From positions 16,556,001-16,620,000 of the forward strand of contig OZ076409.1 of assembly GCA_964187785.1 (NCBI GenBank): a stretch of DNA of 64,000 nucleotides, written 5' to 3'. A program made the translations under genes and the position numbers. The stretch is from Amphiscolops sp. MND2022. Its lineage: Eukaryota. This document shows positions 1,595-61,223 of the stretch, one piece after another. Under the pieces are notes generated by a model. That model was given only the letters and a program-made list of their open reading frames with translations. It ran no database searches and had not been told where the DNA came from. How positions within the stretch are numbered: position 1 is the stretch's first letter; each line of letters starts with the position of its first letter.

Positions 1595-2486
1595 GGTATG
1601 GCCGGTGCGAGACGACCGAACCTACAGATTCTACCCGTGCAATGTCAGCATCAAGATTCAAAATGCCCTGCCCAATCTGACTAACGAAGAAATCAAGAAC
1701 GAACTGAAACTACCCGAAGGCATTACTGCGAACGACGACTTGAACTTCAAAACAGTCAGCATTGGGCCGTACATGAAAGTCTTTGATGGAACAGCGACAA
1801 TCTCTGCCACTGTTCAATCTGCCGAGCAAATGGAAGAAATGAAAAACTGGTCGCGCAAATCTTTCTTTGAAGAAAAACAAGTTAGAAATCAAGTGACTCA
1901 GATGTATGCTCCTAACATCATGACATGTACTTTCTGTGAAAAGAAAGGCTCCTTCTACAGAGGTCATGATGACACTTGGTGCACAAAGAAAACGAAAGAA
2001 GAACGCGAACTGGAAAAAAAAGCGAAGGCGATCGAAGACGAAGGCGACGTCTTCACAGCCGACGAACAAAGTGTACACAACGAACAAATCGCAAAAATCA
2101 GAAACGACAGCTGTGCATCAACATCAAGCAGAAATAATAAAAGACGACGCAGCACACCAAAGCGCGCCAACTCGGAAAAAAACCCACGACTCAGTGCGAG
2201 ACAGCGAACCAGCCAAATACCAAAGATGAAAGCAAAAGCTCAAAATGAGAACAAACCCGAACAGAAAGAAAGTACAAGTCAAACTGCAAACAACAACAGT
2301 GATAACAATGACGAGAATGAAGAACAAGATACCACAAGCACGAAGAACGCAGATACCGAAAACAGATTGCCGAAACCGCTGAACATGAGAGATTTTGTGG
2401 ATGCAATGAATCCAATCCATCACATAGAAACAAATGAAACAACAAACAACAACGTCAACGAAACAAACAATACGAAGACGAAATGA
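1595..2486 (+). pseudogene. 5'-truncated ORF1 of A1
   Basis: Matches the C-terminal ~295 aa of the 397-aa ORF1 at 56577; lacks the start codon. Confidence 0.9.
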
Positions 2487-5400
2487 CGATGCCCAACATT
2501 GTTAGTTTCAATTGTAGGGGTCTTGGCAATCCCTTGAAACTCACAAGCCTAATTGCAAATACTGACATCAACAATGACGTCATTGCAATTCAAGAAACTA
2601 AAATGAAAAAACTAAAGAAAAAACATTTGAAAATACTCGAGTCCTACGACCTGAATTACGTAATCAGCCCATGCGACAAATCAAAAGCGGGCGGCCTGCT
2701 GCTTTTGTTCAAAGCAAAACATAACGTAGAGCTGGTTACCCAAAACAAGTCTTTTCAAATTATAAAGATGTCAAACCAAGCCACTGAAACAAAGATGGCC
2801 AATGTTTACATATGCCCCAGTTGGAGTATAAGCAAAATCAATGAAGAACTTGAAGACCTGAAACTCAACTTGGAATCAAAGCATCTCAGGCATATTGAAC
2901 CATGTGTAATAGTTGGTGACTTGAATTGTTTCGATGACGTCACAAGAAACAAACATCCTCAATATGCAAAACACAAAGTCATACTGAAAGCGTTTGAAAA
3001 AATGGGCTTGATGGACATGGCAGTGAAGCTTGAGAATATCGAGAACACACACTTCGCGCCAGCCCAAAAACCATCGCGCCTGGATTATATCTTCTCAAAT
3101 GTTGTGAGTCAGAAACAAGAAATCAGAACGATCAAGACATGCTTCTCAGATCACCGAATTTTGCGCCTGTCAAGCAAGCATAAGGCCGAGCAAGGTCAAA
3201 AGATCTTTAGAATGGATGACACAACTGTTGATGAAAACGTCAAAACCCTGAAAACGCTGATTTCACAAACAAATGGCTTGACCGGTGAACAGCTAGCGAA
3301 TGATGCGTATCTCACAATGAAAAATGAAATTTCCAACTTTCTAAGACAGGCTAGCATATGGAGAGCAAGAAATAACAAAGACAGACTGCTCAAGGGGCCC
3401 GACGCAGAAGCTGAGCAGAATCTTGCAAAAAGAATGCTAGCAGCAGTGAAGGTCAAATGCACTGACCTGAATGAAGGAAACTTGAAGATTGTTAAAAAGT
3501 ACTGCTCTGACAATGCAAACAACCAAAGCAACGCGATCAAGAAGCTGAAAACACAGAAAGATCGAATTGTCTCAAGTGAGAATGAGATCATAGATGAGGT
3601 TACAAAGTACTACAGTAAGCTCTACGCCAACGAACCAATTGATGAGAAGAAACAAGAGTGCCTCATCACAAACTTCAAAAAACAGATCTCTGAAGATGAA
3701 AGAGAACGTCTAACTCAGCAAATCACCCTAGACGAAATCAAAAATGCGATTGACAATCTGAACAAAGAAAGCGCGCCAGGCCCAGATGGACTCACCCCAA
3801 AACTGTTTCAAACGTTCAAAGAAGAATTCAGTCTTATGTTTCAAAAGATGTTTGAACATGCTGCAGACGGTAACAACTTACCAATGGCATTCAACCAAGC
3901 CTTCATTAGACTACTTCCGAAAAGTGGTGATCTGACAACATTGAAGAACTGGAGACCAATAAGCCTGATCAACACTGACAGCAAGATTTTTTCAGCAGTA
4001 ATTGCAAACAGAATGAAAAGTAGCCTCCGCGAAATCATCCACCCAGATCAATGCGCATATTTGAAAGGCAGACAAATGTCAAACGCCACACTGCTACTAA
4101 AATCTCTGTGCACAAACAAAAGAATGAAAAAAACTTTGACACTAGCTGGACTCGACTTCAGCAAAGCCTTCGACAGGGTAGATCGTTCGTACTTGCTGAA
4201 ACTTATAAAACATGTGGGATTCCCTCCCAACATATACAACATGATAGAGCAACTGTACAAAGATACACGATCTAACGTTCTAGTCAACTCCTTCATCACA
4301 AGACGAATACAGCAAGAAAGAGGAGTGAAACAAGGCTGCCCAGTCTCAGCTCTTTTGTTCATCCTAGCTATTGAGCCATTGCTTGAACTACTGAGATCGT
4401 CATCGAGCCTGACTGGAATCGCAAAAGGAAAATTGAAGAAAAAAATCATTGCATATGCTGATGACGTCACAATGTTAGTTGAGAATGAAGAACAACTGAA
4501 GCAAGCAATTCAAACGGTTGAAGACTTTGGCAAAAGCACCCAATTCGCCTTGAACGCTGACAAAACGGAACAGTTTGACCTGAATCGAAGAAATGAAGAT
4601 CAAAAGATCAAACTCCTCGGTTTGTATTTGTTCAGCAACCAAAAAAGTGAAAAGCAGCACTACCAGCAACAACTGATCCAAGAAAGCGAAAGAGCAAAGA
4701 AAGTGTGTAGACCATCAATGTCGATGAAAACGAAAAGTTGCGTCATGAAAGCCTTCGTAATGCCAAAAATAGTGTTCCATGCGAAAGCCTCAAACTGTGA
4801 TCGAGCAACTTGGAAAAAAGTTCAACGAAACCTAAAACAAGGACTTCACAACAATAGGAGCAATCAGATTTCAGAACGCCTTCTTTTTCAAAGCACCAAT
4901 GAAGGCGGTGTTGGCTTCCCATGCGTGAAGACCTATGCAAGCACTTCTTTTCTGATGGATGTGTGGAGAGCAGTTTTCCACAATGACGATCACTTTATTG
5001 CACTCGAAATCAAAGAAGCAGTAGAAGACGAGAAAAGTTACGTTCACAGCAAACTGAAACAAATGAAAACGATAACGAAAGCGCGAGCGATAACTTTCAA
5101 GCGAGAACACATAGAGTTTGTGACAAGTGAAGGACTAACAAAAATCCCTGCTACTTCAAAAGCAATATACGCTTTTGCAATCCGCCGACAGCATGCAGAC
5201 TTCGTAGATGAAAGAATCATGAAAGCGGGATCAAAACTTCAAACATCACCCCAACAACTTCTGTACACACTCAAAGCAATTTGGAGAAGCAACAAATTGA
5301 ACCCTGTTCAACGAGACGTCTTCTATAATTTCAGTTTCAATCTTTACCGAGACAAAGTATTCCTCCATGCAGCTGGCTACAAGTCTGATGATGACTGTTT

Positions 5401-5650
5401 CCTTTGCGGAACAAGTAAACAAACACATGAGCATCTGATCCTAGATTGTCAAAAAACAAAGCAGATTGCTGAAACCCTTGGAATTCGCAGCATGAAAGAT
5501 CTGTACCAGCAGGCAGAACAAGACACATGGAAAAAAGTCAGATTCGTAACAACTCTGCTCATATGTTCATGGACCGACAACAAGCAAGAAGTGGAACAAA
5601 TGATTCACAACTTTCCCATCACTATCAAGCAAGTTGGCACAGTGGCTTAG
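2483..5650 (+). CDS. ORF2: APE endonuclease, reverse transcriptase and C-terminal CCHC finger (L1/Tx1-like), 1055 aa
   Basis: SFNCRGL, IQET, GDLN, SRLDY, SDH; PGPDG, WRPISLIN, DFSKAFD, GVKQGCP, YADD; CFLC..H..C. Confidence 0.97.
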   Translation: MTMPNIVSFNCRGLGNPLKLTSLIANTDINNDVIAIQETKMKKLKKKHLKILESYDLNYVISPCDKSKAGGLLLLFKAKHNVELVTQNKSFQIIKMSNQATETKMANVYICPSWSISKINEELEDLKLNLESKHLRHIEPCVIVGDLNCFDDVTRNKHPQYAKHKVILKAFEKMGLMDMAVKLENIENTHFAPAQKPSRLDYIFSNVVSQKQEIRTIKTCFSDHRILRLSSKHKAEQGQKIFRMDDTTVDENVKTLKTLISQTNGLTGEQLANDAYLTMKNEISNFLRQASIWRARNNKDRLLKGPDAEAEQNLAKRMLAAVKVKCTDLNEGNLKIVKKYCSDNANNQSNAIKKLKTQKDRIVSSENEIIDEVTKYYSKLYANEPIDEKKQECLITNFKKQISEDERERLTQQITLDEIKNAIDNLNKESAPGPDGLTPKLFQTFKEEFSLMFQKMFEHAADGNNLPMAFNQAFIRLLPKSGDLTTLKNWRPISLINTDSKIFSAVIANRMKSSLREIIHPDQCAYLKGRQMSNATLLLKSLCTNKRMKKTLTLAGLDFSKAFDRVDRSYLLKLIKHVGFPPNIYNMIEQLYKDTRSNVLVNSFITRRIQQERGVKQGCPVSALLFILAIEPLLELLRSSSSLTGIAKGKLKKKIIAYADDVTMLVENEEQLKQAIQTVEDFGKSTQFALNADKTEQFDLNRRNEDQKIKLLGLYLFSNQKSEKQHYQQQLIQESERAKKVCRPSMSMKTKSCVMKAFVMPKIVFHAKASNCDRATWKKVQRNLKQGLHNNRSNQISERLLFQSTNEGGVGFPCVKTYASTSFLMDVWRAVFHNDDHFIALEIKEAVEDEKSYVHSKLKQMKTITKARAITFKREHIEFVTSEGLTKIPATSKAIYAFAIRRQHADFVDERIMKAGSKLQTSPQQLLYTLKAIWRSNKLNPVQRDVFYNFSFNLYRDKVFLHAAGYKSDDDCFLCGTSKQTHEHLILDCQKTKQIAETLGIRSMKDLYQQAEQDTWKKVRFVTTLLICSWTDNKQEVEQMIHNFPITIKQVGTVA

Positions 5651-5939
5651 CCAAAGACCATGAGTCAAACAAACGAGGTTCGAACCTCTGACGGAACCAA
5701 GACACAAACATGAAAAAAACTCTTTTACCTTATTGTTTGAAAGGTAAGTATTCCAACCCTATTGATAAGTTTTATTTGAAAGCAGACTGCGAAAGTGGTC
5801 TGCTGCCCAATTTTTTGAACAAGGAACAAGCTAGTCTGCACTAACTTAAAAGTTACGCGTATTTTGACCGAGAAAATTTTCGTATCATTGTACGTAATTT
5901 TGTTGTTAAGCATATAAAGCTATTGATTTTACAATGATC

Positions 5940-12393: not shown

Positions 12394-13179
12394 TTTTTGT
12401 CAGAAATGTGGTTTAACTTCGGTGACAGTTTTGCAAAAGGGGTCAAATTGAAAAGATAGCAAAAAACGGACAACGCCATTAGAAAGAGCGTCCAAAAAAA
12501 CCCCCATGCTGAAATTTTCGCCGCCATCACTTGAATTTTCATTGAGTTATGTCATTTTTACTATTTTCACAAAATGTGGTTTAACTTCGGTGACAGTTTT
12601 GCAAAAGGGGTCAAAATGAACAGATAGCAAAAAACGGACAACGGCATTGGAAAGAGGGCCCAAAATTACCCCTAAAACGTGTTTTTCACACTCCTGAGTA
12701 GACTTTTGATAATACATGGAATTTCATTTTTAAGCTTACTAATTTATGCTTTTCAGCATACATTTTCGTAATAGAGTCAAAATTTTGCTTTCTCACAATT
12801 TTTCTGGAATATTTTTGTTTCATCAGATGTCAATAACTTGAAACGTCGTCTTTTCATGAGAATTTCTCCTCAAAACAAGTTGTTGGCTGGTAATGGTAAG
12901 TCCGTACCGCAGATAGGAGTCTCGCGCTCCAAAAATTGACTCTTTGCTTTTAGCCTAATTGTTGTGATAAACTTATTAAATAGGTAAGTATTCCAACCCT
13001 ATTGATAAGTTTTATTTGAAAGCAGACTGCGAAAGTGGTCTGCTGCCCAATTTTTTGAACAAGGAACAAGCTAGTCTGCACTAACTTAAAAGTTACGCGT
13101 ATTTTGACCGAGAAAATTTTCGTATCATTGTACGTAATTTTGTTGTTAAGCATATAAAGCTATTGATTTTACAATGATC

Positions 13180-13298
13180 GGCTACGACCATACCATGTTG
13201 AATGCACCGGTTCTCGTCCGATCACCGAAGTTAAACAACATAGGGCCTGGTTAGTACTTGGATGGGAGACCGCTTGGGAACACCAGGTGTTGTAGCCT
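13180..13298 (+). rRNA. 5S rRNA
   Basis: As 876-994. Confidence 0.98.
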
Positions 13299-13880
13299 TT
13301 TTTGTCAGAAATGTGGTTTAACTTCGGTGACAGTTTTGCAAAAGGGGTCAAATTGAAAAGATAGCAAAAAACGGACAACGCCATTAGAAAGAGCGTCCAA
13401 AAAAACCCCCATGCTGAAATTTTCGCCGCCATCACTTGAATTTTCATTGAGTTATGTCATTTTTACTATTTTCACAAAATGTGGTTTAACTTCGGTGACA
13501 GTTTTGCAAAAGGGGTCAAAATGAACAGATAGCAAAAAACGGACAACGGCATTGGAAAGAGGGCCCAAAATTACCCCTAAAACGTGTTTTTCACACTCCT
13601 GAGTCGACTTTTGATAATACATGGAATTTCATTTTTAAGCTTACTAATTTATGCTTTTCAGCATACATTTTCGTAATAGAGTCAAAATTTTGCTTTCTCA
13701 CAATTTTTCTGGAATATTTTTGTTTCATCAGATGTCAATAACTTGAAACGTCGTCTTTTCATGAGAATTTCTCCTCAAAACAAGTTGTTGGCTGGTAATG
13801 GTAAGTCCGTACCGCAGATAGGAGTCTCGCGCTCCAAAAATTGACTCTTTGCTTTTAGCCTAATTGTTGTGAAAGCTTTG

Positions 13881-14070
13881 ATCCCTGAAGTCTGAGCCCT
13901 AGCCCCTTCAGTGGAACAGTTGACACCTCAAATAGTTTAAAAGCCACTGCGCCAGCTGTGATTTCTCTAGATCCCTGAAGTCGAGCCCTAGCCCCTGAGG
14001 TGGATCGAAAAATCAAAGCTGAGGGAGAAACTGGCTGTATCCCTGAAGTCGAGCCCTAGCCCCTTCAGTG
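13881..14070 (+). repeat. Three copies of ATCCCTGAAGTC(T)GAGCCCTAGCCCCT in family B 5'UTR
   Basis: At ~13881, 13971 and 14039; also present in B2 at ~46672-46860. Confidence 0.9.
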
Positions 14071-14136
14071 CGATCGTTGGTGGAGACCCCCGCTTTTTGC
14101 AACTTTTTTTACCCGCTTTTTTCATAAAACCTCAAA

Positions 14137-15557
14137 ATGCCTCCTAAAAACTTCCTAGAAACAGCCTCTAGCAAAAAGAAATTTGAATCTTATAAACAAG
14201 GATCGAGAAGAAACTCAACATCAAATCTAACATCAAACATACCCAACCCTGAAGGTAAATATAACGGACCAGCTGAACGAAATCGTCTTTTGAAAGAAAA
14301 GGAAGAAGAAGAACAGAGAAAACTGAAGATTGACAAAATGATTGAAGAGACAAGGGAGGAATTTCCACCGATAGAAGGTTCCAGCAAACCACAATCACCA
14401 CAGCCTAAAAGCCAACAACAGCATGAAATACAAAACGAACAACGCCCAAAACAACAGCAGCTTCAACCTCAGCCCGACATTAGTAACAGCCAAAACAGCT
14501 ACAGTAATGCTGTCTGTAATCAAAAAACGTAGTCGTAAACAAAATCTTCCGGTTGAAAATTGTACCTCTTTTTCGCAAAGAACATTTCGAAAACAAAAAT
14601 GCCCTCGAAACTGAGATAGCAAAAGCTTATGCTGAAATCCTAAAACCATTCAAACCTCAAGTGCGAATGTACATTACAATTTCGAGAACTATTGAAGAAA
14701 AATGGGGAAAACGACTTCACATTTTACATGTAACTGCCCCTGAAGAAGCGGAAGAAGACATCGAAAACATTAAAACTAAAGGTTTACAAATAATGGGCAG
14801 AACAGTATTTCCAACTGGAGACGATTTTTACCAAGTTCGTAATAGTCAATTTCCCCGAAAAGTGTGGGTAAAGATTAACAATTTGCCGTTTCTTTGCAGC
14901 GATGAAGTTTTACTCAGTCTACTAGACCTCCCAGAAGGAGTTGAGATTAGTGAAAATGTAACAAGAGAAACGATACAAACTGAAAATGGCACCATCCACA
15001 ACGGAAAGGCTAAACTGTCAGTTGTGGTCCCAGACAGTGAAAAACTCAAAGAACTCAAACAGTGGTCTTTGGAGAAAAGTCACATTTGCGTCACAAAATG
15101 GTTCGAAATTCCGATTTATATGTCGACCCCAAGCCTGCACAAATGTGACGCTTGTGAAAAAGAAAATCGGAAATCGTACATTGGCCACGACATAGCGTGG
15201 TGCAGGGTTTTAAGGAAACCTGAAAAAACTGAGGAAGCTCCCGAAAGCTGCCAAGAAGAAACAGCGGACGAGTCACAAGCTGAACAAGAAAACGAAGTAT
15301 GGGCTGACGCACCAACAAAATCCTTTCCAAACACAAACAAAAAGAACAAGAAAAGATCGAAGTCGAAATCCAAAGAGACCACCAGCCCTGGATTGATGCA
15401 GCAGAATAAATTTCAGCTTCTTTCTACATCCAGTGACCAACCTGAAGCAATTCTAAGCGCAACGTCAACAATACAAGTCCAGCCACCAAATCCAAAGAAC
15501 CCGCAGCACCCGGAAACGCCCTGTGAAGCACCCCTGGAAAGAAGCGACCATGGATGA
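14137..15557 (+). pseudogene. ORF1 of B1, frameshifted
   Basis: A6 at 14522-14527 versus A7 in B2 splits the 473-aa ORF1 into 14137-14532 and 14553-15557; could be a homopolymer sequencing error. Confidence 0.8.
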
Positions 15558-18500
15558 AGAAATAGAAATTTTTTCAATTAATGCTAGAGGATTAGCCTCA
15601 AATAAATCAAAATTAATTGAGATTTGCAACATTGTTAAGAAAAATAAAAAACATGAAACATTTTATGTACTGATACAAGAGACTAAGCTGGAAAAAATGA
15701 AACCGGAACTTCTTAAAATAATTCAATATAACAATTTGTCTTTTCAAATAGTTCCCTCAGAAAATAAAAGTGGAGGTCTAATGATACTTTATGATAAAAA
15801 CACCGAAATAGAATTACTTGACAAGAACCAATGTTCCCTAACAATTCGAGACAAAAAATCGGATTCAATAATTATAAATACTTATGTGAATCCAAAACAG
15901 TACAATTTTCAGCCTCTCAAAGATACTATTGAAACACTAGAACTAACATGTGATCAAACTATTTATATGGGAGGTGATTTCAATGCCATCGATCCTTCAG
16001 ATATCAATGAAGAAAACAAAACGTTCAATATGACTGTAAAATCAAATGATATTCGACTATTGCGATCCAAAAAACTAATACATTTGAACTCAAGTCTCCT
16101 TCTGATAGATCTTGCGCAACTCTTACAGAATCGCCAACCAACGCATTTTGAAACACGGTCTGGAAAACAAAGCCGCATCGATTATATTTTTAGTAATAAC
16201 CAAAATCTCACCATCGAAAAAAACAGGATCGAAACATTGCCCTTTGCTTTTTCCGACCACAAATGCCTCCACCTTTTTCGAAATAGCAACTATCAGTATT
16301 CTCAAAAACTTTGGAAGCTCGATAACATTGTATTTAACTATCCGGAGAAAGTGAAGGAAATACTAGAAACATCTAAAGTCGCATCCGAAAAATTTGGGAA
16401 CATTGTGTCTTGTCATGATATCTTTAAAGCGAAATTAAGAGATCAACTAAAATACTTTAGTGCTACAAGCAGAAAGATGCTAGTGAAACAAAAAGAAAAA
16501 ATTCAGATGGATATTGAAAAACTCGAAGAAAATTGTTCTAAGGGAAATTGTTCTGACCAACAGATCAAACAGAACTTAGAGCACCTGACATGCCTCAAAA
16601 ATAATCTTCAATTGATCAAAAATGAAGAATCTGAAAATTCATTTCAACAAATCAAAAACTTCTTCAGGGAAGCCAATGATGGAAACACAAAAAATATCAA
16701 ATGCTTAGCAAAAGCCTCAAGCTTAGCTAAGGATATCAAAAAGATTGAAAAACAAGATGGATCATTCACAGAAGATCCTGACGAAATTTTAAATGAATTC
16801 AAATCTTTTTATGAGAAACTTAGCCAACCAAAATGGAAACCAACAGAAACATCCTCGAAATCTCAGGATAAATTCATTGAAAAGTTTTTTAAACAAAAAA
16901 GGAAAAGCATTGAAAACATTGAAAAATTGTTCAAAGAAACGTTGGAGGACCCCGACAACGAAATCACAGTATATGAAGTTGAAAAAGCTATCTCTAAACT
17001 GAACTCAAACAGTGCTCCTGGATCGGATGGACTTACAAGTCAATTATACCAAAACCACAAAAACTTTTTTGCCCCGTATCTTTCAAATCTATTCAATAAA
17101 ATCAATGAAAATGGAGAAGTTCCGGACTCATTTAAACATGCAATCATCAAAGTAATTCCTAAGAAGAATAATTCACTGAAGGTATCCGAATTTCGGCCAA
17201 TTAGTCTCATTAATACGGATCAAAAAATTCTTTCTCATGTTCTAGCAGAAAGACTTAAACCTATTTTATCAATATTAATTGGTAATCATCAAAACGCTCA
17301 TTTACCAAATAGAAATATACACATTGCCATACAAAAAATTCAGCATTACGCCCATGAAACTACTCGTAGTCAATCACTTATCGCTATTGACTTCAGTAAA
17401 GCTTTCGACTGTGTAGAACGTAGCTTTTTACAAAAACTGATTGAAAAAAGTCCAATCGATAAATTTACTCAAGAAATGATTTTACTTACGTACAAGGATA
17501 CTTATGCTTTCATTGGAATGAAAAATGGAATTTCCACAAAATTCAAAATAGATAGAGGGGTGAGACAAGGCTGTCCTCTCTCAGCACTGATTTTCAATCT
17601 TTGCCTCGAACCTCTTCTACAAAGAATTCAAAAATCAAAATACATAAAATCAAAACAACAAACAAAATGTATCGCCTACGCAGATGATATAACGATCAGC
17701 CTCTACAACAAATCTCTTCGGAAGCTATTGATTATATTGGATCATTTTCACGAAATAGCAGGCTTAGAAGTTAATTTAGCCAAAACTGAAATCCTTTCGA
17801 AAGCGGACAAATTATTTGTATCGGAAAAACTAACAAGAGTTACCACAACAAAAATTCTTGGAGTTTACATTTCGCTGAATAAAACTCTCAAAAAAGAAAC
17901 CAAGAACGCAATAACGAATGCTTTTAACTCAGCAGAAAAATTCATATTAAAAAATAGTTCGTTCCGCGCGAGAGCTAGAAATATTGAGACTTTTATCTAC
18001 TCGAAATTAATTCATCATCTGAGACACGAAAATTTGTACAAAAAGTTTCTTCGAAAAGTTCAATCGAAAATAATAGATGTTTTCTGGCTGTACAAAAAAC
18101 ACAATGTTAAAAAAGAAATTCTTGAGCTACCAATTGAAGAGGGCGGAGTAAACCTCAAGAACTTCTCAAAATACTACCTAACTGCCAAGATTATGAACTT
18201 GAAGTTTCTAGCGGTTAACCCAAAGGAGAGAAAATACATACAAGAATTGAAGAAATCAAAATTTTTTTCAGAATTAGAAAAACACTTCGAAAAGGAACAC
18301 ATTGAAATCCTGGAACTGAAACCAGAAGAATTTACAATCCAACATCATTTCACCACGCTTAATATAACAAAAGAAACAACTTCGAAAGAAATTTATACTT
18401 TTTTGAACAACTCCTCAATAAACGTCCCACCGTCTCTAAAAACTGAAGTCACAGCAACAAAACAAAATATAGCATCCGAAATTTTAAACTCAGTTACAAA

Positions 18501-18876
18501 GAACATCTGGAAAAACAAAAAACTCACTTCGTTTGATAAAAACTATCTTTACTGCTTCCTAATGAACTCGTATCTAGATAAACAGGACAAGTGGCTTAAA
18601 AATCTTGTTCTCCAACCACTATGTTTCGCATGTGAAGCAGAATTTGAAACATGGGACCATTTAATGTTTTCGTGTAAAAAATTGAAAACGTTAACAATGA
18701 AGTTAAACGTTTTTTCATGGAAGGAAATATGGCTTGATCGAAGTTGTCTCTCTCGAAAACTCCTTGTAGCAATAATGCTCTCGTCGTGGACGGAATCAAT
18801 TGGAGACTACTTAAAATATTTTCTAGAACGAATGAAAGTAATACTAATACCAGTTGCAAATCTATCTGATAATTGA
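15550..18876 (+). CDS. ORF2 of B1: APE, RT and CCHC finger
   Basis: ATG at 15550 (MDEEIEIFSINARGL) as in B2; IQET, GGDFN, SRIDY, SDH, PGSDG, DFSKAFD, GVRQGCP, YADD, CFAC..H..C. Confidence 0.97.
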   Translation: MDEEIEIFSINARGLASNKSKLIEICNIVKKNKKHETFYVLIQETKLEKMKPELLKIIQYNNLSFQIVPSENKSGGLMILYDKNTEIELLDKNQCSLTIRDKKSDSIIINTYVNPKQYNFQPLKDTIETLELTCDQTIYMGGDFNAIDPSDINEENKTFNMTVKSNDIRLLRSKKLIHLNSSLLLIDLAQLLQNRQPTHFETRSGKQSRIDYIFSNNQNLTIEKNRIETLPFAFSDHKCLHLFRNSNYQYSQKLWKLDNIVFNYPEKVKEILETSKVASEKFGNIVSCHDIFKAKLRDQLKYFSATSRKMLVKQKEKIQMDIEKLEENCSKGNCSDQQIKQNLEHLTCLKNNLQLIKNEESENSFQQIKNFFREANDGNTKNIKCLAKASSLAKDIKKIEKQDGSFTEDPDEILNEFKSFYEKLSQPKWKPTETSSKSQDKFIEKFFKQKRKSIENIEKLFKETLEDPDNEITVYEVEKAISKLNSNSAPGSDGLTSQLYQNHKNFFAPYLSNLFNKINENGEVPDSFKHAIIKVIPKKNNSLKVSEFRPISLINTDQKILSHVLAERLKPILSILIGNHQNAHLPNRNIHIAIQKIQHYAHETTRSQSLIAIDFSKAFDCVERSFLQKLIEKSPIDKFTQEMILLTYKDTYAFIGMKNGISTKFKIDRGVRQGCPLSALIFNLCLEPLLQRIQKSKYIKSKQQTKCIAYADDITISLYNKSLRKLLIILDHFHEIAGLEVNLAKTEILSKADKLFVSEKLTRVTTTKILGVYISLNKTLKKETKNAITNAFNSAEKFILKNSSFRARARNIETFIYSKLIHHLRHENLYKKFLRKVQSKIIDVFWLYKKHNVKKEILELPIEEGGVNLKNFSKYYLTAKIMNLKFLAVNPKERKYIQELKKSKFFSELEKHFEKEHIEILELKPEEFTIQHHFTTLNITKETTSKEIYTFLNNSSINVPPSLKTEVTATKQNIASEILNSVTKNIWKNKKLTSFDKNYLYCFLMNSYLDKQDKWLKNLVLQPLCFACEAEFETWDHLMFSCKKLKTLTMKLNVFSWKEIWLDRSCLSRKLLVAIMLSSWTESIGDYLKYFLERMKVILIPVANLSDN

Positions 18877-18966
18877 AGATATGATGCGATTCTAATCTAA
18901 TAAATTCCATATTGATCTTTTGTAAAAAAAGGGTTGATATTATTCATGATTAATTGAATTTTTGAA

Positions 18967-19075
18967 AGCCTAATTGTTGTGATAAACTTATTAAATAGGT
19001 AAGTATTCCAACCCTATTGATAAGTTTTATTTGAAAGCAGACTGCGAAAGTGGTCTGCTGCCCAATTTTTTGAAC
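18967..19075 (+). ncRNA. SL RNA sequence regenerated downstream of element B1, separated from its upstream flank
   Basis: Complete SL sequence begins with the 3' TSD. Confidence 0.75.
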
Positions 19076-27155: not shown

Positions 27156-27250
27156 TTTTTGGAGTATATCTTGCCTGTTTGAGGTGTGAGTCGCAGCAAT
27201 CATAGGTCCAAAACCAGTAACCAAAAACCAACCTGTACTTACTGTTTGAA
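27156..27250 (+). mobile_element. 95-bp insertion D at SL splice donor (3' end of a fourth family, or a non-autonomous element)
   Basis: TSD AGGTAAGTATTCCA at 27142-27155 and 27251-27264; unit is 109 bp longer (95+14); ends CTTACTGTTTGAA. Confidence 0.9.
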
Positions 27251-34807: not shown

Positions 34808-35596
34808 TTTTTGTCAGAAATGTGGTTTAACTTCGGTGACAGTTTTGCAAAAGGGGTCAAATTGAAAAGATAGCAAAAAACGGACAACGCCATTAGAAAG
34901 AGCGTCCAAAAAAACCCCCATGCTGAAATTTTCGCCGCCATCACTTGAATTTTCATTGAGTTATGTCATTTTTACTATTTTCACAAAATGTGGTTTAACT
35001 TCGGTGACAGTTTTGCAAAAGGGGTCAAAATGAACAGATAGCAAAAAACGGACAACGGCATTGGAAAGAGGGCCCAAAATTACCCCTAAAACGTGTTTTT
35101 CACACTCCTGAGTAGACTTTTGATAATACATGGAATTTCATTTTTAAGCTTACTAATTTATGCTTTTCAGCATACATTTTCGTAATAGAGTCAAAATTTT
35201 GCTTTCTCACAATTTTTCTGGAATATTTTTGTTTCATCAGATGTCAATAACTTGAAACGTCGTCTTTTCATGAGAATTTCTCCTCAAAACAAGTTGTTGG
35301 CTGGTAATGGTAAGTCCGTACCGCAGATAGGAGTCTCGCGCTCCAAAAATTGACTCTTTGCTTTTAGCCTAATTGTTGTTCACGCGTCGGTTGGTTAGTT
35401 ATCTTTGACTTTTGACTTCTGATTGTGAAAAACTTTTTTGACGAGTTTTTAACACATAGTACCGCTAAAACTATAGAAGTTTAACGAAAAAATTGTTTAT
35501 TTGGGTTTATACCCCTTTGCACTTTACCCCCTCTGGGTTTATACCCCCCCCTTGGGTTTATACTCCCTTTTGGATAGAGGATAGGAAAACGACTTC

Positions 35597-36928
35597 ATGA
35601 TTCTTGACGACGATGTTGCTTCTGGTAATGTGGACGTAACAAAAATGCCGATGGATGGTCACGACAATACTGAATATATTCCACCTATTGAAAGCCTCAG
35701 CCTTGTTCAATTGTCGGAGCAATCGCAATCTGGGTCTCCGTCACTTACACCACCACCAACATCTTCTCTACAGAACATACAATCGGCAATAAACACGCAA
35801 TTATACAGCGCTGTTGCAGGTGCCAACACTCCACCATCTCGCACGACAGCAATAGTTAAAATGAAAATCATTCCACCATTACAAAAACAACACTTCACAA
35901 CCAAGGACAACTTCACTACTGCAACCAATCAATGTTTTTCAGCAATTTTACGTTGCTTTCCACCTACATACAGACAACAGCTTACTATTTCAAAATCATT
36001 TACAATTGTTGGGACCAGACATTTGCATTCAATTAATGTAGTGGCGCCTGTCACAGCCCAGGACATTGTATCAAAATTGCAAACAACAGGAATATCAATG
36101 CTTGGCAAAACTGTATTTCCATCGACAGACAACTTTCTCACTAATTTACCTGGACTCTATCCACGATACACTCAAGTGAGACTTCTACATGCACCAGCAC
36201 AATGCGATGACGAGACCTTAACAGAACTATTACATCTTCCGGCAGATACGACAATCATAGGATTCAAACGTCAGACAGACACGATTGATGGTATGTCCTT
36301 TTTCAATGGCAAAATAGCATGCACGATAAAAATCAACAATACAACTCATGAAGAAGAACTACGACAATGGTCGTTGGATCAACATGAAAATCCCACAATG
36401 ATTTGGGAGGAGATTCCTATCTTTGCTTTTATTCCCTCACTTCACAATTGCACTTTCTGTAAACAACATAACAAACCTCACTTTGGACATGACATTGCCT
36501 GGTGCAAACATGCAAAAGCACATCCAACGACTCCACCATCACCTCCTCTACCACAACAGACATCAACTACAACTTCGCAGATGCCTCTGCCTCCTCCTTC
36601 TTCTTCTGCTACTCCATCTGTTATCGCGCCAACTCCTCCTACTTTGGTTAACAACAACTTGGGTTTAGCTGACGTACCTGTTACAACGACTGATGATTGG
36701 CAACCTGTAACTAAGAAGACTTTCCCTAAACACAGTTTGGTTAGAACGAGGTCTGTTATCAAGGCGAAAAGACCAAAACACCCGAGCCCTGTAACTGAAG
36801 TTAACCCCAATTTGACAGAACCTACGATGACGGCACCGTTCCTTCCGACTACACCCATTTACAATTCATTTGACAGCAAGCGGTATTCTAAATCTTCCAG
36901 GTCTAAACATGATAGTGTTCAGCCTTAA
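35597..36928 (+). CDS. ORF1 of C, 443 aa, nucleic-acid-binding protein with CCHC motif
   Basis: CTFCKQHNKPHFGHDIAWC; motifs shared with ORF1 of B (KIIPP/KIVPP, GKTVFP/GRTVFP, LRQWSL/LKQWSL). Confidence 0.9.
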   Translation: MILDDDVASGNVDVTKMPMDGHDNTEYIPPIESLSLVQLSEQSQSGSPSLTPPPTSSLQNIQSAINTQLYSAVAGANTPPSRTTAIVKMKIIPPLQKQHFTTKDNFTTATNQCFSAILRCFPPTYRQQLTISKSFTIVGTRHLHSINVVAPVTAQDIVSKLQTTGISMLGKTVFPSTDNFLTNLPGLYPRYTQVRLLHAPAQCDDETLTELLHLPADTTIIGFKRQTDTIDGMSFFNGKIACTIKINNTTHEEELRQWSLDQHENPTMIWEEIPIFAFIPSLHNCTFCKQHNKPHFGHDIAWCKHAKAHPTTPPSPPLPQQTSTTTSQMPLPPPSSSATPSVIAPTPPTLVNNNLGLADVPVTTTDDWQPVTKKTFPKHSLVRTRSVIKAKRPKHPSPVTEVNPNLTEPTMTAPFLPTTPIYNSFDSKRYSKSSRSKHDSVQP

Positions 36929-39900
36929 TTGTAGAGGACTGAAGGATCCTCTTCGCCTTGCCATGACTCTGACTGCTTGTCAGCGTCATGGTGTGAAAAA
37001 TTTTGTTCTTTTCCTACAAGAAACTAAGATTTCTGAATTTTCTATCAATCATAGAAAACTACTTACACAACACCATCTCTCGTACTGCATGGTTCCTGCC
37101 TCTGATACTGCAGGTGGATTGGTGACAATTTTTCCGTCTTCTTTCCACATAACTTACCGTTTTAACAATGAATCCATGCTCCTATTGCGTTTTCAAGAAT
37201 ATAATATCACTTTTAGCAACTGTTATGTCAATCCGCTTGATTTTCATCTGGAAAAGCTTAATCATGGTTTCCAACAGCTTTCTCTTCTATCTTCTAGTTC
37301 TCACATACTTGGTGGAGATTTTAACTGTTTATCAACCCGTGCTGACACATCTAATGTTAATATTCGAAGTAATGATTTCCGCTTACTTCGTTTTCGAAAA
37401 CTTATGAATCTTATGCACCTGCTGGATGTCACACCATGTGCTCCAGCCTCGGTTGCACATCTGTTCACACACTATGATAAAAGGTATAATACATTTAGTC
37501 GTTTAGACTACTTTTTTACATCGAGTGTTGACTTCTCTCTCGAAACTGAAGTCATTCCTTTTTCGGATCACAAGTTAATTAAGCTTTGTGAAGCGGCATC
37601 TTTTACTCCAGCAAACAGTCATTGGAAATTAAATGACAACATTCTGCAGTATCACCATGCAGTGCGGGAGGTTTTGGTGAGTTCTATTGCATCCCGGTCT
37701 ACGGATTCAGAGTGTATCCTATCGAACTATGATGTCATTAAAAATCTTGTTAGGGATAAACTCCGTATCTTTTGTATCCAGAATCATAGACGTAATCTTT
37801 TTGAAGAAAATCACCTGAAAGAACTAATACTTGATGCAGAGAAATATCTACAAATTTTTGGCGTAGATTCCAAAACTATTTCTCGTCTTTCAGATTTAAA
37901 TAAAAAATTGATGGAACTCCAGCACCAGAATGCTCGTAAATGCCTTAAACAGGTGAAAATGTTTTATGTTGATGCCAATCATGGTGATCCTCAAGTTATT
38001 AAAAAACACCTTTCAAATATGAGAAAATCCGTACATATTTCTCAAATACAAGACGACAATGGTGAGGTCTTGACTACTGATGAGCAGATTTTTGAAGCTT
38101 TTCATATGCATTACTCAGATCGTTTTTCCATTCCGCAGGTCAATATCAATAATGATTCCCATGTCAAGCAGCTGCAAGATGACATTATTGGTACTTTTTG
38201 TAGTGTTAAGAGATCTGATATTGAAAATATTCGCACTCTAACCAGAGACCGGGATATGATTAGTGAACAAGAAGTTATTAATGCCATTAACAAATTGAAT
38301 TCTGAAAGTGCTCCTGGTCCTGATGGCCTCACTTCCAACTTTTATAAAGCTCATCAGGAGGTTCTGAGTCCTCTACTCTGCAGGCTGTTTAACCAGATGG
38401 TTACTGATGGTTGGATGCCGCTATCTTTCTCCAGAGCCATTATAAAACTGATTCCTAAAAAACCCAACGCCAATCGTGTTGAAGATTTTCGTCCCATCAG
38501 TCTTATTAATACAGACCAAAAAATACTCTCTCATATTTTGTCGGAACGAGTTCGCATTCCTGTTGATAAGCTTATTGGTCCCCACCAATCTGCTTATCTT
38601 CCTGGGCGTCACATACACCCTTCTTTATTGAAAGTCTCCTTAAACTTGGAAACCATGCCGTCAAATAATTCTCTCATCGCTATTGATTTTAGCAAAGCCT
38701 TTGATAAACTAAGTCGAACATTTATCTTTGCGTTATTAGAAAAAATTGGCTTGCACGAAAACACAGTCAAATTGATTCGCATCATGTATATGCATAATAT
38801 TGCCTATCTTGACATCAATGGTCAACTCTCTCAACCTGTTCTTATGGAAAATGGAGTTAGGCAAGGCTGCCCTTTATCCGCGCTCATTTTTATTCTAGGC
38901 ATTGAACCCCTTCTTCATGCAATTCAGCACTCCTTCAACATTAGATCGGATATGCCGTTTAAAATTATCTCGTATGCGGATGATCTTACTTGTGGTATTC
39001 ACACTGATAATATTCAAGATCTTTTTGATATCATTGATACATTTTCTGGCGTTACGAATTTATCTGTTAATCAATCTAAAACTGAAATTCTTACATTGAG
39101 TAGTCTTCGTCCTCCTCTCCAATCTTGTGACGTTGTTAAAATACTGGGTGTTCACTTTAGTTTGGGCAACTCTGCTAGACCTTTCTCTGACTTCATGAAC
39201 TATGCGCAACGAAGTGGTCAGTATTGTAACAAATACAATACTCTAATAGCTCGTGCGCGAAATATTCATACCTTTGTTATGCAAAAATTAGTTCATGAAA
39301 TTCGCCATCTTTATGTCCTAAGGCCTCAATTAGACAAAATTGATAGTATTTTCATTGATGCTATTTGGCTTGGCCGCAAACACAATCTAAGTAAATTTAT
39401 TCTCCAGAGACCATGGTCGGCGATGGGTATTGGTCTTCGGAATTTCCGTCAAACTATTGTTTCTTCCAAAATTATCGACTGCTTCAACTTTCTCTACGAA
39501 AACAGTTTGCCCGATAATCTTAAACTGTTACTCCAATCTAGGTTTTTTAGAAATCTTAAATCCTTGTGTCGCACATTTAAATGCTCCATTTCCTTTCCAA
39601 ACTCCACCACCTGTACTCTTTCTATTGATGACCGTCAACTTGTGATTTCCACCCCTCTTCCCACTAAAAAAATTTATCATTTTCTTACAGACCGGTCAAC
39701 TTCGGCAGCTTTTTGCCGAATCTCTAGTATGGCAGAGAAATTATCTGTTCCTGCTTTTTCTATCTTTTCCTTCATCCGTCACTTGTGGAAGCATCCCTCG
39801 TATGCTGCTTTTGAGAAAAATTATTTATATCTGTTTTTCCTTAATTGCTACTTAGAGAAAACCAAAAAACAAGATTTGGGCTTAGTGTTTTCAGCTCATT

Positions 39901-40160
39901 GCTGTTTTTGTGGTGTTGAAGACGAAACCTTCTCACATCTTATTACTGAATGTCAGCATATTCCATCTCTCAATTTCTTTAAAACTCCTAGTGATTGCTG
40001 TCTAGATTTTCAAAACATGAATGCAATTTACCCTTTCAAACGTCTGATAGCTCTCCTAATTTCCTCATGGAGCGAAGATCCGCTCAGATTCTCTAAGTAT
40101 TTTTTGAATTGTGTCTCCTTAAGGCATCCAACCATTCTTAACCATCAGGCTGTAACGTAA
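36909..40160 (+). CDS. ORF2 of C: APE, RT and CCHC finger
   Basis: ATG at 36909 (MIVFSLNCRGL); LQET, GGDFN, SRLDY, SDH, PGPDG, DFSKAFD, GVRQGCP, YADD, CCFC..H..C. Confidence 0.96.
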   Translation: MIVFSLNCRGLKDPLRLAMTLTACQRHGVKNFVLFLQETKISEFSINHRKLLTQHHLSYCMVPASDTAGGLVTIFPSSFHITYRFNNESMLLLRFQEYNITFSNCYVNPLDFHLEKLNHGFQQLSLLSSSSHILGGDFNCLSTRADTSNVNIRSNDFRLLRFRKLMNLMHLLDVTPCAPASVAHLFTHYDKRYNTFSRLDYFFTSSVDFSLETEVIPFSDHKLIKLCEAASFTPANSHWKLNDNILQYHHAVREVLVSSIASRSTDSECILSNYDVIKNLVRDKLRIFCIQNHRRNLFEENHLKELILDAEKYLQIFGVDSKTISRLSDLNKKLMELQHQNARKCLKQVKMFYVDANHGDPQVIKKHLSNMRKSVHISQIQDDNGEVLTTDEQIFEAFHMHYSDRFSIPQVNINNDSHVKQLQDDIIGTFCSVKRSDIENIRTLTRDRDMISEQEVINAINKLNSESAPGPDGLTSNFYKAHQEVLSPLLCRLFNQMVTDGWMPLSFSRAIIKLIPKKPNANRVEDFRPISLINTDQKILSHILSERVRIPVDKLIGPHQSAYLPGRHIHPSLLKVSLNLETMPSNNSLIAIDFSKAFDKLSRTFIFALLEKIGLHENTVKLIRIMYMHNIAYLDINGQLSQPVLMENGVRQGCPLSALIFILGIEPLLHAIQHSFNIRSDMPFKIISYADDLTCGIHTDNIQDLFDIIDTFSGVTNLSVNQSKTEILTLSSLRPPLQSCDVVKILGVHFSLGNSARPFSDFMNYAQRSGQYCNKYNTLIARARNIHTFVMQKLVHEIRHLYVLRPQLDKIDSIFIDAIWLGRKHNLSKFILQRPWSAMGIGLRNFRQTIVSSKIIDCFNFLYENSLPDNLKLLLQSRFFRNLKSLCRTFKCSISFPNSTTCTLSIDDRQLVISTPLPTKKIYHFLTDRSTSAAFCRISSMAEKLSVPAFSIFSFIRHLWKHPSYAAFEKNYLYLFFLNCYLEKTKKQDLGLVFSAHCCFCGVEDETFSHLITECQHIPSLNFFKTPSDCCLDFQNMNAIYPFKRLIALLISSWSEDPLRFSKYFLNCVSLRHPTILNHQAVT

Positions 40161-40312
40161 CTAAGTTCAATTTTATTTATATCTTGCAACCAATGAACCA
40201 TTCACTTACTTTGATTAGCTACTGAATTGTCTGAATTATGAACTTGGTCATGACCTACGCTATTTGATTGATTCATTTGTTCCTACTGATTTACTGTAAT
40301 TAATTCTTTAAA

Positions 40313-46089: not shown

Positions 46090-46663
46090 TTTTTGTCAGA
46101 AATGTGGTTTAACTTCGGTGACAGTTTTGCAAAAGGGGTCAAATTGAAAAGATAGCAAAAAACGGACAACGCCATTAGAAAGAGCGTCCAAAAAAACCCC
46201 CATGCTGAAATTTTCGCCGCCATCACTTGAATTTTCATTGAGTTATGTCATTTTTACTATTTTCACAAAATGTGGTTTAACTTCGGTGACAGTTTTGCAA
46301 AAGGGGTCAAAATGAACAGATAGCAAAAAACGGACAACGGCATTGGAAAGAGGGCCCAAAATTACCCCTAAAACGTGTTTTTGACACTCCTGAGTCGACT
46401 TTTGATAATACATGGAATTTCATTTTTAAGCTTACTAATTTATGCTTTTCAGCATACATTTTCGTAATAGAGTCAAAATTTTGCTTTCTCACAATTTTTC
46501 TGGAATATTTTTGTTTCATCAGATGTCAATAACTTGAAACGTCGTCTTTTCATGAGAATTTCTCCTCAAAACAAGTTGTTGGCTGGTAATGGTAAGTCCG
46601 TACCGCAGATAGGAGTCTCGCGCTCCAAAAATTGACTCTTTGCTTTTAGCCTAATTGTTGTGA

Positions 46664-49600
46664 AAGCTTTGATCCCTGAAGTCTGAGCCCTAGCCCCTTC
46701 AGTGGAACAGTTGACACCTCAAATAGTTTAAAAGCCACTGCGCCAGCTGTGATTTCTCTAGATCCCTGAAGTCGAGCCCTAGCCCCTGAGGTGGATCGAA
46801 AAATCAAAGCTGAGGGAGAAACTGGCTGTATCCCTGAAGTCGAGCCCTAGCCCCTTCAGTGCGATCGTTGGTGGAGACCCCCGCTTTTTGCAACTTTTTT
46901 TTTACCCGCTTTTTTCATAAAACCTCAAAATGCCTCCTAAAAACTTCCTAGAAACAGCCTCTAGCAAAAAGAAATTTGAATCTTATAAACAAGGATCGAG
47001 AAGAAACTCAACATCAAATCTAACATCAAATATACCCAACCCTGAAGGTAAATATATCGGACCAGCTGAACGAAATCGTCTTTTGAAAGAAAAGGAAGAA
47101 GAAGAACAGAGAAAACTGAAGATTGACAAAATGATTGAAGATACAAGAGAAGAATTTCCACCGTTAGAAGGTTCCAGCAAACCACAATCACCACAGCCTA
47201 AAAGCCAACAACAGCATGAAATACAAAACGAACAACGCCCAAAACAACAGCAGCCTCAACCTCAGCCCGACATTAGTAACAGTCAAAACAGCTACAGTAA
47301 TGTTGTCTGTAATCAAAAAAACGTAGTCGTTAACAAAATCTTCCGATTGAAAATTGTACCTCCTTTTCGCAAAGAACATTTCGAAAACAAAAATGCCCTC
47401 GAAACTGAGATAGCAAAAGCTTATGCTGAAATCCTAAAACCATTCAAACCTCAAGTGCGAATGTACATTACAATTTCGAGAACTTTTGAAGAAAAATGGG
47501 GAAAACGACTTCACATTTTACATGTAACTGCCCCTGAAGAAGCGGAAGAAGACATCGAAAACATTAAAACTAAAGGTTTACAAATAATGGGCAGAACAGT
47601 ATTTCCAACTGGAGACGATTTTTACCAAGTTCGTAATAGTCAATTTCCCCGGAAAGTGTGGGTAAAGATTAACAATTTGCCGTTTCTTTGCAGCGATGAA
47701 GTTTTACTCAGTCTACTAGACCTCCCAGAAGGAGTTGAGATTAGTGAAAATGTAACAAGAGAAACGATACAAACTGAAAATGGCACCATCCACAACGGAA
47801 AGGCAAAACTGTCAGTTGTGGTCCCAGACAATGAAAAACTCAAAGAACTCAAACAGTGGTCTTTGGAGAAAAGTCACATTTGCGTCACAAAATGGTTCGA
47901 AATTCCGATTTATATGTCGACCCCAAGCCTGCACAAATGTGACGCTTGTGAAAAAGAAAATCGGAAATCGTACATTGGCCACGACATAGCGTGGTGCAGG
48001 GTTTTAAGGAAACCTGAAAAAACTGAGGAAGCTCCCGAAAGCTGCCAAGAAGAATCAGCGGACGAGTCACAAGCTGAACAAGAAAACGAAGTATGGGCTG
48101 ACGCACCAACAAAATCCTTTCCAAACACAAACAAAAAGAACAAGAAAAGATCGAAGTCGAAATCCAAAGAGACCACCAGCCCTGGATTGATGCAGCAGAA
48201 TAAATTTCAGCTTCTTTCTACATCCAGTGACCAACCTGAAGCAGTTCTAAGCGCAACGTCAACAATACAAATCCAGCCACCAAATCCAAAGAACCCGCAG
48301 CACCCGGAAACGCCCTGTGAAGCACCCCTAGAAAGAAGCGACCATGGATGAAGAAATAGAAATTTTTTCAATTAATGCTAGAGGGTTAGCCTCAAATAAA
48401 TCAAAATTAATTGAGATTTGCAACATTGTTAAGAAAAATAAAAAACATGAAACATTTTATGTACTGATACAAGAGACTAAGCTGGAAAAAATGAAACCGG
48501 AACTTCTTAAAATAATTCAATATAACAATTTGTCTTTTCAAATAGTTCCCTCAGAAAATAAAAGTGGAGGTCTAATGATACTTTATGATAAAAACACCGA
48601 AATAGAATTACTTGACAAGAACCAATGTTCCCTAACAATTCGAGACAAAAAATCGGATTCAATAATTATAAATACTTATGTGAATCCAAAACAGTACAAT
48701 TTTCAGCCTCTCAAAGATACTATTGAAACACTAGAACTAACATGTGATCAAACTATTTATATGGGAGGTGATTTCAATGCCATCGATCCTTCAGATATCA
48801 ATGAAGAAAACAAAACGTTCAATATGACTGTAAAATCAAATGATATTCGACTATTGCGATCCAAAAAACTAATACATTTGAACTCAAGTCTCCTTTTGAT
48901 AGATCTTGCGCAACTCTTACAGAATCGCCAACCAACGCATTTTGAAACACGGTCTGGAAAACAAAGCCGCATCGATTATATTTTTAGTAATAACCAAAAT
49001 CTCACCATCGAAAAAAACAGGATCGAAACATTGCCCTTTGCTTTTTCCGACCACAAATGCCTCCACCTTTTTCGAAATAGCAACTATCAGTATTCTCAAA
49101 AACTTTGGAAGCTCGATAACATTGTATTTAACTATCCGGAGAAAGTGAAGGAAATACTAGAAACATCTAAAGTCGCATCCGAAAAATTTGGGAACATTGT
49201 GTCTTGTCATGATATCTTTAAAGCGAAATTAAGAGATCAACTAAAATACCTTAGTGCTGCAAGCAGAAAGATGCTAGTGAAACAAAAAGAAAAAATTCAG
49301 ATGGATATTGAAAAACTTGAAGAAAATGGTTCTAAAGGAAATTGTTCTGACCAACAGCTCAAACAGAACTTAGAGCACCTGACATGCCTCAAAAATAATC
49401 TTCAATTGATCAAAAATGAAGAATCTGAAAATTCATTTCAACAAATCAAAAACTTCTTCAGGGAAGCCAATGATGGAAACACAAAAAATATCAAATGCTT
49501 AGCAAAAGCCTCAAGCTTAGCTAAGGATATCAAAAAGATTGAAAAACAAGATGGATCATTCACAGAAGATCCTGACGAAATTTTAAATGAATTCAAATCT

Positions 49601-60934: not shown

Positions 60935-61223
60935 CCAAAGACCATGAGTCAAACAAACGAGGTTCGAACCTCTGACGGAACCAAGACACAAACATGAAAA
61001 AAACTCTTTTACCTTATTGTTTGAAAGGTAAGTATTCCAACCCTATTGATAAGTTTTATTTGAAAGCAGACTGCGAAAGTGGTCTGCTGCCCAATTTTTT
61101 GAACAAGGAACAAGCTAGTCTGCACTAACTTAAAAGTTACGCGTATTTTGACCGAGAAAATTTTCGTATCATTGTACGTAATTTTGTTGTTAAGCATATA
61201 AAGCTATTGATTTTACAATGATC

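Follow-up and report, generated by a model that had tools for sequence, protein, structure and literature searches.

Distantly related L1/Tx1-group retrotransposons occupy two fixed sites in the spliced leader RNA genes of an acoel

The SL (trans-spliced leader) RNA genes of the acoel Amphiscolops sp. MND2022 carry retrotransposons at two sites 30 bp apart, and no family overlaps between them. Their ORF2 proteins combine an APE endonuclease, a reverse transcriptase and a zinc finger, the donor-site family A sits on a separate deep branch, and prefixes of SL exon, fixed in each family, accompany elements to ectopic places. We consider it probable that distantly related lineages of the L1/Tx1 group have come to occupy two fixed sites in the SL gene, one site per family, and that they likely make use of the host SL promoter.

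The window, by which we mean the whole 64,000-nt stretch of DNA analysed, is a tandem SL-RNA/5S array with a unit of 905 bp. As in nematodes, where SL RNA genes are also linked to 5S genes, each unit contains a 5S rRNA gene (46 Rfam matches across the window); its second gene consists of a 31-32 nt exon followed by a GT donor, a stem-loop and an Sm-like site. The exon is identical to the trans-spliced leader given for the acoel Symsagittifera roscoffensis in excerpts of PMC9911081; we number it as the earlier note on this DNA did, so that the published leader begins at G = +2. One unit and the six insertions that interrupt units of the window are laid out as follows.

12952..13856, + strand: one array unit of 905 bp (SL RNA gene, 5S rRNA gene and spacer/promoter), recognized from sequence, Rfam and leader match
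12953-12983, + strand: exon of the SL RNA gene within that unit, with donor GT at 12984 and Sm-like AATTTTTTG at 13049-13057
13180-13298, + strand: 5S rRNA gene within that unit
1595..5741, + strand: family A, 5'-truncated, at the donor site, with a target-site duplication (TSD) of 14 bp (1581-1594 / 5742-5755)
13857..13872, + strand: 16-nt SL-exon prefix preceding B, TSD-like but carried by the element (3 dispersed full-length B copies have an identical prefix, itself preceded by a local TSD or filler)
13873..18966, + strand: family B, an APE non-LTR element of full length inserted at the exon start, with ORF2 (15457-18876) intact and a frameshift in the ORF1 of this copy
18967..18998, + strand: SL exon regenerated 3' of B; nick most likely between 18967 (A) and 18968 (G)
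27156..27250, + strand: family D, a non-coding element of 95 bp inserted at the donor with a 14-bp TSD; its 5' half is antisense to SL +2..+44 and its 3' end to the donor downstream
35366..40312, + strand: family C at the exon-start site, with 14-nt SL prefix (35366-35379), ORF1 (35585-36928) and ORF2 (36831-40160)
46648..50724, + strand: second B copy (element 46664-50724), 3'-truncated at an internal AGC matching the target start
56154..61025, + strand: family A, full length, with SL exon +1..+29 joined seamlessly, T30A, no donor and no TSD; ORF1 56574-57770, ORF2 57722-60934
56171..56224, + strand: hairpin at the head of this A copy, 13 perfect pairs (56171-56183 with 56189-56201) in place of the SL exon-intron stem; further antisense to the exon start extends it

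The 3' junctions of B (13873-18966) and C (35380-40312) read ...AA|AGCCTAATT, and those of A (1595-5741, 56186-61025) and D (27156-27250) read ...TTTGAA|AGGTAAGT. The exon-start and donor insertion sites lie 30 bp apart, as the earlier note had proposed from B and C on one side and A and D on the other. Its TSD lengths needed revision: 14 bp is correct for the truncated A and for the D copy of the window but not for full-length A, which has no TSD, while the 16 and 14 bp described for B and C are present as lengths but are family-fixed SL prefixes, that of B shown to travel with the element. D does occupy the donor site, but as a recurrent family of 79-113 bp (37 copies) and not as a truncated LINE.

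We tabulated junctions over three chromosomal arrays of 460, 560 and 240 kb (1.26 Mb), whose ends may extend further and which exclude unplaced contigs. These hold 695 5S genes and, among promoter-linked SL genes, 521 intact and 170 interrupted copies. Of 226 non-unit segments, 185 have their 3' junction inside an SL gene and the remaining 41 have it outside the SL gene or in N gaps. Two inversion-junction fragments were skipped, and a Helitron-like element accounts for 5 inserts at +7/+8. SL-gene 3' junctions fall 113 times at +1, the exon start, and 65 times at +31, the donor. Donor-site inserts belong to A (28) and D (37). The start site hosts eight autonomous L1/Tx1-group families, namely B (9, counting the 3'-truncated copy), C (12, one with a swapped tail), E (6), F (5), G (4), H (4), J (2) and K (1), together with 70 copies of ORF1-only hitch-hikers of 1.4-2.0 kb. 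No family was present at both sites among the 178 inserts of this three-array census, which bears out the proposal that the sites are partitioned between families. Genome-wide tallies of best matches, which overlap the census, agree: 30 of 30 for A and 30 of 30 for D are at the donor, and 19 of 20 for C are at the start, the twentieth having a swapped tail and lying at the start site too. B also occurs outside the arrays, in 5 of its 13 full 3'-end matches at identities of at least 92%, with flanks AGCCT, AGGCC or AGCTT. ORF2 is intact and full in 21 of 24 long A copies.

Because blocks of the arrays are duplicated by recombination, 178 overstates the number of independent events, and distinct 5' junctions provide a floor. 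These number 38 at the start and 24 at the donor with complete separation (Fisher p 1e-17), and 15 for A against 7 for B and C together (p 6e-6). That a few old insertions were amplified by unequal crossing-over, making the partition an artefact, is an idea to which the duplication of some neighboring blocks (for example, the C copies at C1:16.27-16.33 Mb) and the 97.6-99.98% identity between copies lend something, but it is refuted by 62 distinct 5' junctions on three chromosomes, many truncation points and tandem stacking of elements at one site, and dispersed copies have TSDs of their own; we give it almost no credence. The partition was also likened to R1/R2 niche partitioning. Unrelated lineages do share one multicopy gene, but avoidance of competition is doubtful, since eight autonomous and several ORF1-only families crowd the start site, each insertion regenerates the SL site, and single units can carry inserts at both sites (e.g., I142/I143).

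Truncated copies are informative about cleavage. TSDs measure 14-17 bp in truncated A copies (17 in 7 of 10), 11-17 bp in D and mostly 17-19 bp in truncated +1 copies, lengths from which we infer a top-strand cut about 17-18 bp downstream. Both junctions are available for seven off-array copies (L229, L234, L236, L290, L301, L025 and L014); the G-start (GCC or GGCC) lies inside the duplication in all seven, and the base before it is not A in five. As the target lacks the A in those five, the A is the element's own, and the nick is best drawn TA|G, not T|AG as had been suggested for both sites. The start-site nick would then probably be at the published leader start, and the donor-site cut, by analogy, TA|GG. 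We found no TSD at one further dispersed copy (L286) and no poly(A) at the junctions. Off-target flanks have only ~3-4 nt, about GCC(T), in common with the target, and a T-rich upstream flank is kept. Two independent inserts are 3'-truncated exactly at an AGC/TTAGC microhomology with the target start (window position 50724, and I112), which suggests priming by annealing; in the second B copy of the window, internal priming is the likely cause.

The stretch of SL exon that precedes start-site elements resembles a TSD, but in full-length copies its length is a property of the family: 16 in B, 12 or 14 in C, 17 in E and F, 18 in G and J, and 20 in H. It is found where there is no local SL gene, in all three dispersed full-length B copies whose 5' end is unrearranged (a fourth has undergone rearrangement) and in 4 of 4 dispersed full-length H copies. 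As a rule, full-length A runs on from the exon without a seam or a TSD (9 copies in the arrays, and 6 of the 8 on unplaced contigs); five A copies (I145, I158, I161, L294 and L296) instead have exon, donor and TSD and then a second exon with A's own T30A. The ORF1-only family n1603 has an SL prefix in one copy (I109), and a U5-targeting relative, L280, follows the same pattern with a U5-variant prefix. None of the 13 ectopic or doubled-exon prefixes (B, H, A and n1603) begins more than 4 nt upstream of the exon; four have 2-4 T's ahead of the exon, so the RNA does not begin at one exact position. Given these family-fixed prefixes on off-array and doubled copies, element RNA likely starts at the host SL promoter. 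Template switching to SL RNA could in principle add a prefix; the fixed lengths and A's T30A argue against it.

Donor-site families carry an additional feature at their 5' ends. The first ~40 nt of A pair with the exon, 13 perfect pairs replacing the native exon-intron stem, with T30A paired and the donor absent thereafter. The 5' half of D pairs with SL +2..+44 and its tail with the downstream donor, and the 113-bp variant of D matches antisense to +46..+59 as well (14/14). Compared with internal windows, the anti-SL heads of A, D95 and D113 rank first (rank p 0.003 each; 292 windows for A). The same window-rank test was not significant in 13 of 14 start-site rows, the exception, n1603, being marginal (p 0.048), and gives no support to an antisense head as a feature of start-site families. 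A hairpin between 3' tail and target likewise does not extend to a general rule, tail-donor pairing exceeding shuffles for D only (p 0.02-0.03; A, p 0.23). Relative to exact antisense, the D95 arm has 9 transitions that preserve pairing through G-U at 23 possible sites and none that break a pair at 20, and its 4 transversions all fall in one internal loop; this pattern could reflect selection on the RNA helix or fixed A-to-I editing. We suggest that the antisense heads would hide exon and donor from the trans-spliceosome.

Alternatively, prefixes and antisense heads might be by-products of template switching to abundant SL RNA, fold-back synthesis or fixed A-to-I editing, in elements driven by internal promoters. 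Eight of the nine pair-preserving changes in D are A-to-G, an editing signature, and some crocodilian Tx1 families have U1/U2 heads, template switching having been proposed for such heads in SINEU (excerpts of PMC4494074). By-products would not be expected to have a prefix length fixed per family, a base in A's copy that the host lacks and that pairs within the hairpin, or an arm kept in an older, ~90%-identical A variant, and we regard this account as improbable.

D is not a truncated or internally deleted A: blastn found no match between them, and they have only the TGTTTGAA end in common. Nor is it a SINE, as it has no Rfam match and its head is antisense to a host exon; it has more in common with the non-Pol III short retroposons that excerpts of PMC4494074 describe. 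The ORF1-only families (n1982, n1603 and n1430) have no ORF2 match and are of HAL1 type. What they have in common with autonomous families is confined to the final ~40 nt (42/42 between n1603 and G); such a tail match was found for n1982 and n1603 and none to an autonomous family for n1430. HAL1 (half-L1; excerpts of PMC5753468) is likewise non-autonomous and ORF1-only, whereas the acoel families of 1.4-2.0 kb are site-specific, have an old ORF1 lineage of their own and exchange tails of ~40 nt with their autonomous partners. Mobilization of D and of the ORF1-only families may occur in trans, through partners that match them in tail and site.

A, B and C each have two ORFs, of which ORF2 joins APE, RT and zinc finger. 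Pfam RVT_1, Exo_endo_phos and zf-RVT are recognized in all three, some below curated cut-offs, and the catalytic motifs align. The nearest solved structure in the PDB is human L1 ORF2p (E 2e-60, vs 8e-31 for R2), and fixed 3' ends, 5' truncations and TSDs are hallmarks of TPRT. Their ORF2 domains, an RT nearer L1 and these hallmarks place the elements in the L1 (L1/Tx1) group. The ORF1s have no Pfam match but share a C-x2-C-x(9-12)-H-x(3-4)-C motif, its spacing longer than in the canonical zinc knuckle. A Tx1-like preference for small-RNA genes is evident from SL itself and from relatives in U1, U2 and U5. The elements insert into SL RNA genes as CRE and NeSL do, but with an N-terminal APE and two ORFs in place of a restriction-like endonuclease and a single ORF; they work alike without being members.

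A protein search of the genome returned 144 matches, and the 20 we examined include relatives in U2 (about +19), U1 (about +9) or U5 genes, or dispersed with A-rich tails. ORF2 identity is 25-28% between A and the +1 families (25-27% with B and C), 33% between B and C, 37% between B and the U2 targeter and 38% between B and dispersed families. B and C are therefore closer to each other than either is to A, as the earlier note had it; both do contain the motifs that it cited, but the NDIRLLR-like one is common to the U1, U2, U5 and dispersed relatives and does not unite the two. We built a maximum likelihood tree of 36 rows under LG+G4 without a mixture model, with long outgroup branches, a skewed composition in C and no reference Tx1 row; 18 database rows (duplicates of local families, partials and surplus outgroups) were left out. 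The acoel families form a supported group of their own, apart from six outgroup rows. Within it, A groups with two database proteins, away from every other acoel family, and the U1-, U2- and U5-targeting and dispersed poly(A) relatives fall between A and B/C. C groups with K, and a second clade, sister to dispersed families (100/99), comprises B, E, J, H, F and G. AU tests reject a clade of A plus the start-site families (p-AU 1.7e-55) and a clade of start-site families only (p-AU 0.003). The start-site group is thus paraphyletic, topology following target only loosely. This rejection of an SL clade, with relatives of other targets in between, argues that the two SL sites were reached independently, by convergence, within a radiation that also targets U1, U2 and U5.

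The earlier note had instead envisaged a shift of endonuclease specificity between lineages, such that one SL-targeting ancestor gave rise to a daughter lineage whose endonuclease slid 30 bp. The two sites resemble each other in cut motif and 3' terminus (TTT-R-AAA|G) and both ORF1 and ORF2 are homologous across families, which would fit; and, since A branches basally among the acoel families, it is formally possible that SL was the ancestral target and that many shifts came later. However, U1 and U2 targeters end in the same terminus, separate shifts to U5, U1, U2 and dispersed targets would be required after the split, and A's deep, separate branch and the AU tests stand against an SL clade. 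We consider a slid endonuclease unlikely, and A and B/C, with endonucleases only 23-28% identical, are not the natural pair for mapping APE specificity they were taken to be.

What, then, sets the site? The beta-hairpin loop of the endonuclease, at its presumed position, is identical in the SL-start family E and the dispersed poly(A) family L287 and differs among B, C and E despite their common site. Grafting of this loop alters L1 endonuclease specificity, and nicking alone fails to explain integration specificity (excerpts of PMC1950540). It is quite conceivable, if short of probable, that RNA-DNA annealing of read-through sequence mainly sets the site, with a loosely T-rich|G endonuclease, so that the partition is inherited through the RNA tail and not through endonuclease loops. 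The shared loop of E and the dispersed family, off-target sites that match the target in so few nucleotides, internal priming at AGC, and non-autonomous tails that follow the partner's site speak for this; that the best 30 of 30 A matches include no off-target 3' end is tighter than 3-4 nt of annealing alone would give, and the T-rich upstream flank of off-target sites could not be read by an RNA tail. Such annealing is compatible with distantly related lineages at two fixed sites, the difference being what sets the site.

For these lineages, the following mechanism may be envisaged. The endonuclease would nick the bottom strand at T-rich-A|G(C/G), with the top-strand cut ~17-18 bp downstream, and target sequence acquired by read-through at the 3' end of the RNA would aid priming by annealing. 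At the opposite end of the RNA, its SL prefix would anneal upstream in the target, so that 5' junctions come out seamless or family-fixed. Elements at the donor site would carry the whole exon and, for that reason, fold it into an antisense hairpin, A dropping the donor too; this likely spares their RNA from consumption as a trans-splicing donor. More tentatively, and doubtful as a whole, the elements could be parasites of SL RNA, their RNA a giant SL-RNA chimera with a capped host exon at its 5' end and a read-through donor and Sm site at its 3' end, host-derived ends guiding both junctions and donor-site arms switching off the element's own trans-splicing. If so, the target site would be set largely by the RNA, and D would be a retroposon living inside SL RNA.

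R1 and R2 in 28S rDNA resemble the acoel pair as independent lineages at nearby sites of one multicopy gene, with reliance on the host promoter and homology-driven 5' junctions without TSD. R1 and R2 differ from each other in endonuclease class, with a Pol I co-transcript and a ribozyme, whereas both members of the acoel pair are APE elements and their RNA appears to start at an snRNA-type start site. Co-transcription of R2 is cited in excerpts of PMC4494074, where Tx1-clade elements are described as targeting small-RNA genes, some with snRNA heads. According to excerpts of that source and of PMC4640811, target-specific Tx1-clade LINEs (Keno/U2, U5- and 5S-targeting, Tx1-Mar) share the APE, two ORFs and small-RNA-gene targets, with snRNA-derived heads in some families and short trans-mobilized partners (SINEU), and Tx1-Mar families are also split between two regions of one target transposon; these excerpts give no SL RNA target for the clade. 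The acoel elements differ in using two exact sites in one 31-nt exon, eight autonomous families on one of them, in a head that is the target gene's own exon and in the antisense heads of the donor-site families. SL genes are described as targets of RLE-type CRE and NeSL elements (excerpts of PMC12278014 and PMC4640811): the CRE clade (SLACS, CZAR, CRE1 and CRE2) and NeSL also insert into tandem SL RNA genes but with a restriction-like endonuclease in place of APE, and the CRE clade is described as doing so at the same relative position throughout (PMC12278014), compared with two positions in the acoel. In the literature searched we found neither an APE-type element inserted in SL genes nor any account of elements from acoels; a precedent could lie beyond its scope, in Repbase, Kojima & Fujiwara 2004, supplements or the NeSL-1 paper.

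SL RNA genes are thus apparently added to the targets of APE-type retrotransposons, SL targeting having earlier been described for restriction-like-endonuclease elements (excerpts of PMC12278014 and PMC4640811). About a quarter of SL genes (170/691) are interrupted in a host in which 30% of genes are reported to be trans-spliced. One genome holds young, intact families aimed at the SL start, the SL donor, U1, U2, U5 and dispersed sites, and two of its families combine an identical hairpin loop with different targets, which makes the shares of endonuclease and RNA annealing in LINE site choice testable. What is likely new is the convergent use of two sites in the SL gene by target-specific L1/Tx1-group elements, with likely promoter capture and an RNA-level adaptation at the donor site.

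The most frequent inserts in the arrays belong to ORF1-only, HAL1-like site-specific families (70 of 113 inserts at the SL exon start, +1), which form a separate ORF1 lineage and whose tails of about 40 nt are exchanged. Two examples are:

G000:C1:16237795, ORF1-only (HAL1-like) insert
G000:C13:13114606, ORF1-only (HAL1-like) insert

At G000:C12:56263585 (I117), a family C body ends in another 3' tail, which resembles those of J, an autonomous start-site family, and n1982, an ORF1-only one, and the site is still +1; this hybrid is a swap of tails between start-site families. The 5' UTR of family B (window 13873-14070) holds a repeat of about 24 nt three times (GATCCCTGAAGTC.GAGCCCTAGCCCC).

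The spacer of every array unit (window 13309-13577) contains an internal 101-bp duplication, 92% identical. Units of the C12 and C13 arrays carry one extra copy of it and diverge from C1 units by 4-8%. Several units in C12 and C13 (I084-I093, I148-I153, I177, I210) also carry a satellite-filled Helitron-like element, antisense between SL +7 and +8, with a 5' TC, a 3' hairpin plus CTAG and no TSD. These copies may descend from a single event that was then amplified; alternatively, the element could be a third one targeting the SL gene. Unrelated inserts have CCCGGG-type ends, one of them within 5S, and an 814-bp inverted-repeat element lies in the array spacer; as far as seen, these are single events without site specificity.

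Unrelated array inserts (CCCGGG-type ends or inverted repeat)
G000:C12:56537405, 18 kb
G000:C13:13143586, 1050 bp
G000:C13:13252911

A degenerate orphan SL gene (L292, G000:C5:70.349-70.358 Mb) holds a pile of older fragments, both A-like and from start-site families, and an older head of the donor-site family A there retains the antisense arm.

The U2 array likewise hosts two elements (L274:9208, L275:6540-9998, L276:5764-7580): an APE family ending at about U2 +19 and, stacked behind it, a zinc-finger/RT (Utopia-like) element ending at about U2 +38, in one case with a U2 +1 prefix. Related APE families (L281-L283, L278, L273, L280) occupy U1 genes (at about +9) and U5 genes (loop I region). 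The acoel U1-targeting family clusters in the tree with P0012, a database protein labeled as from a cyanobacterial MAG that is probably animal contamination. The U5 site is common to two distinct APE families.
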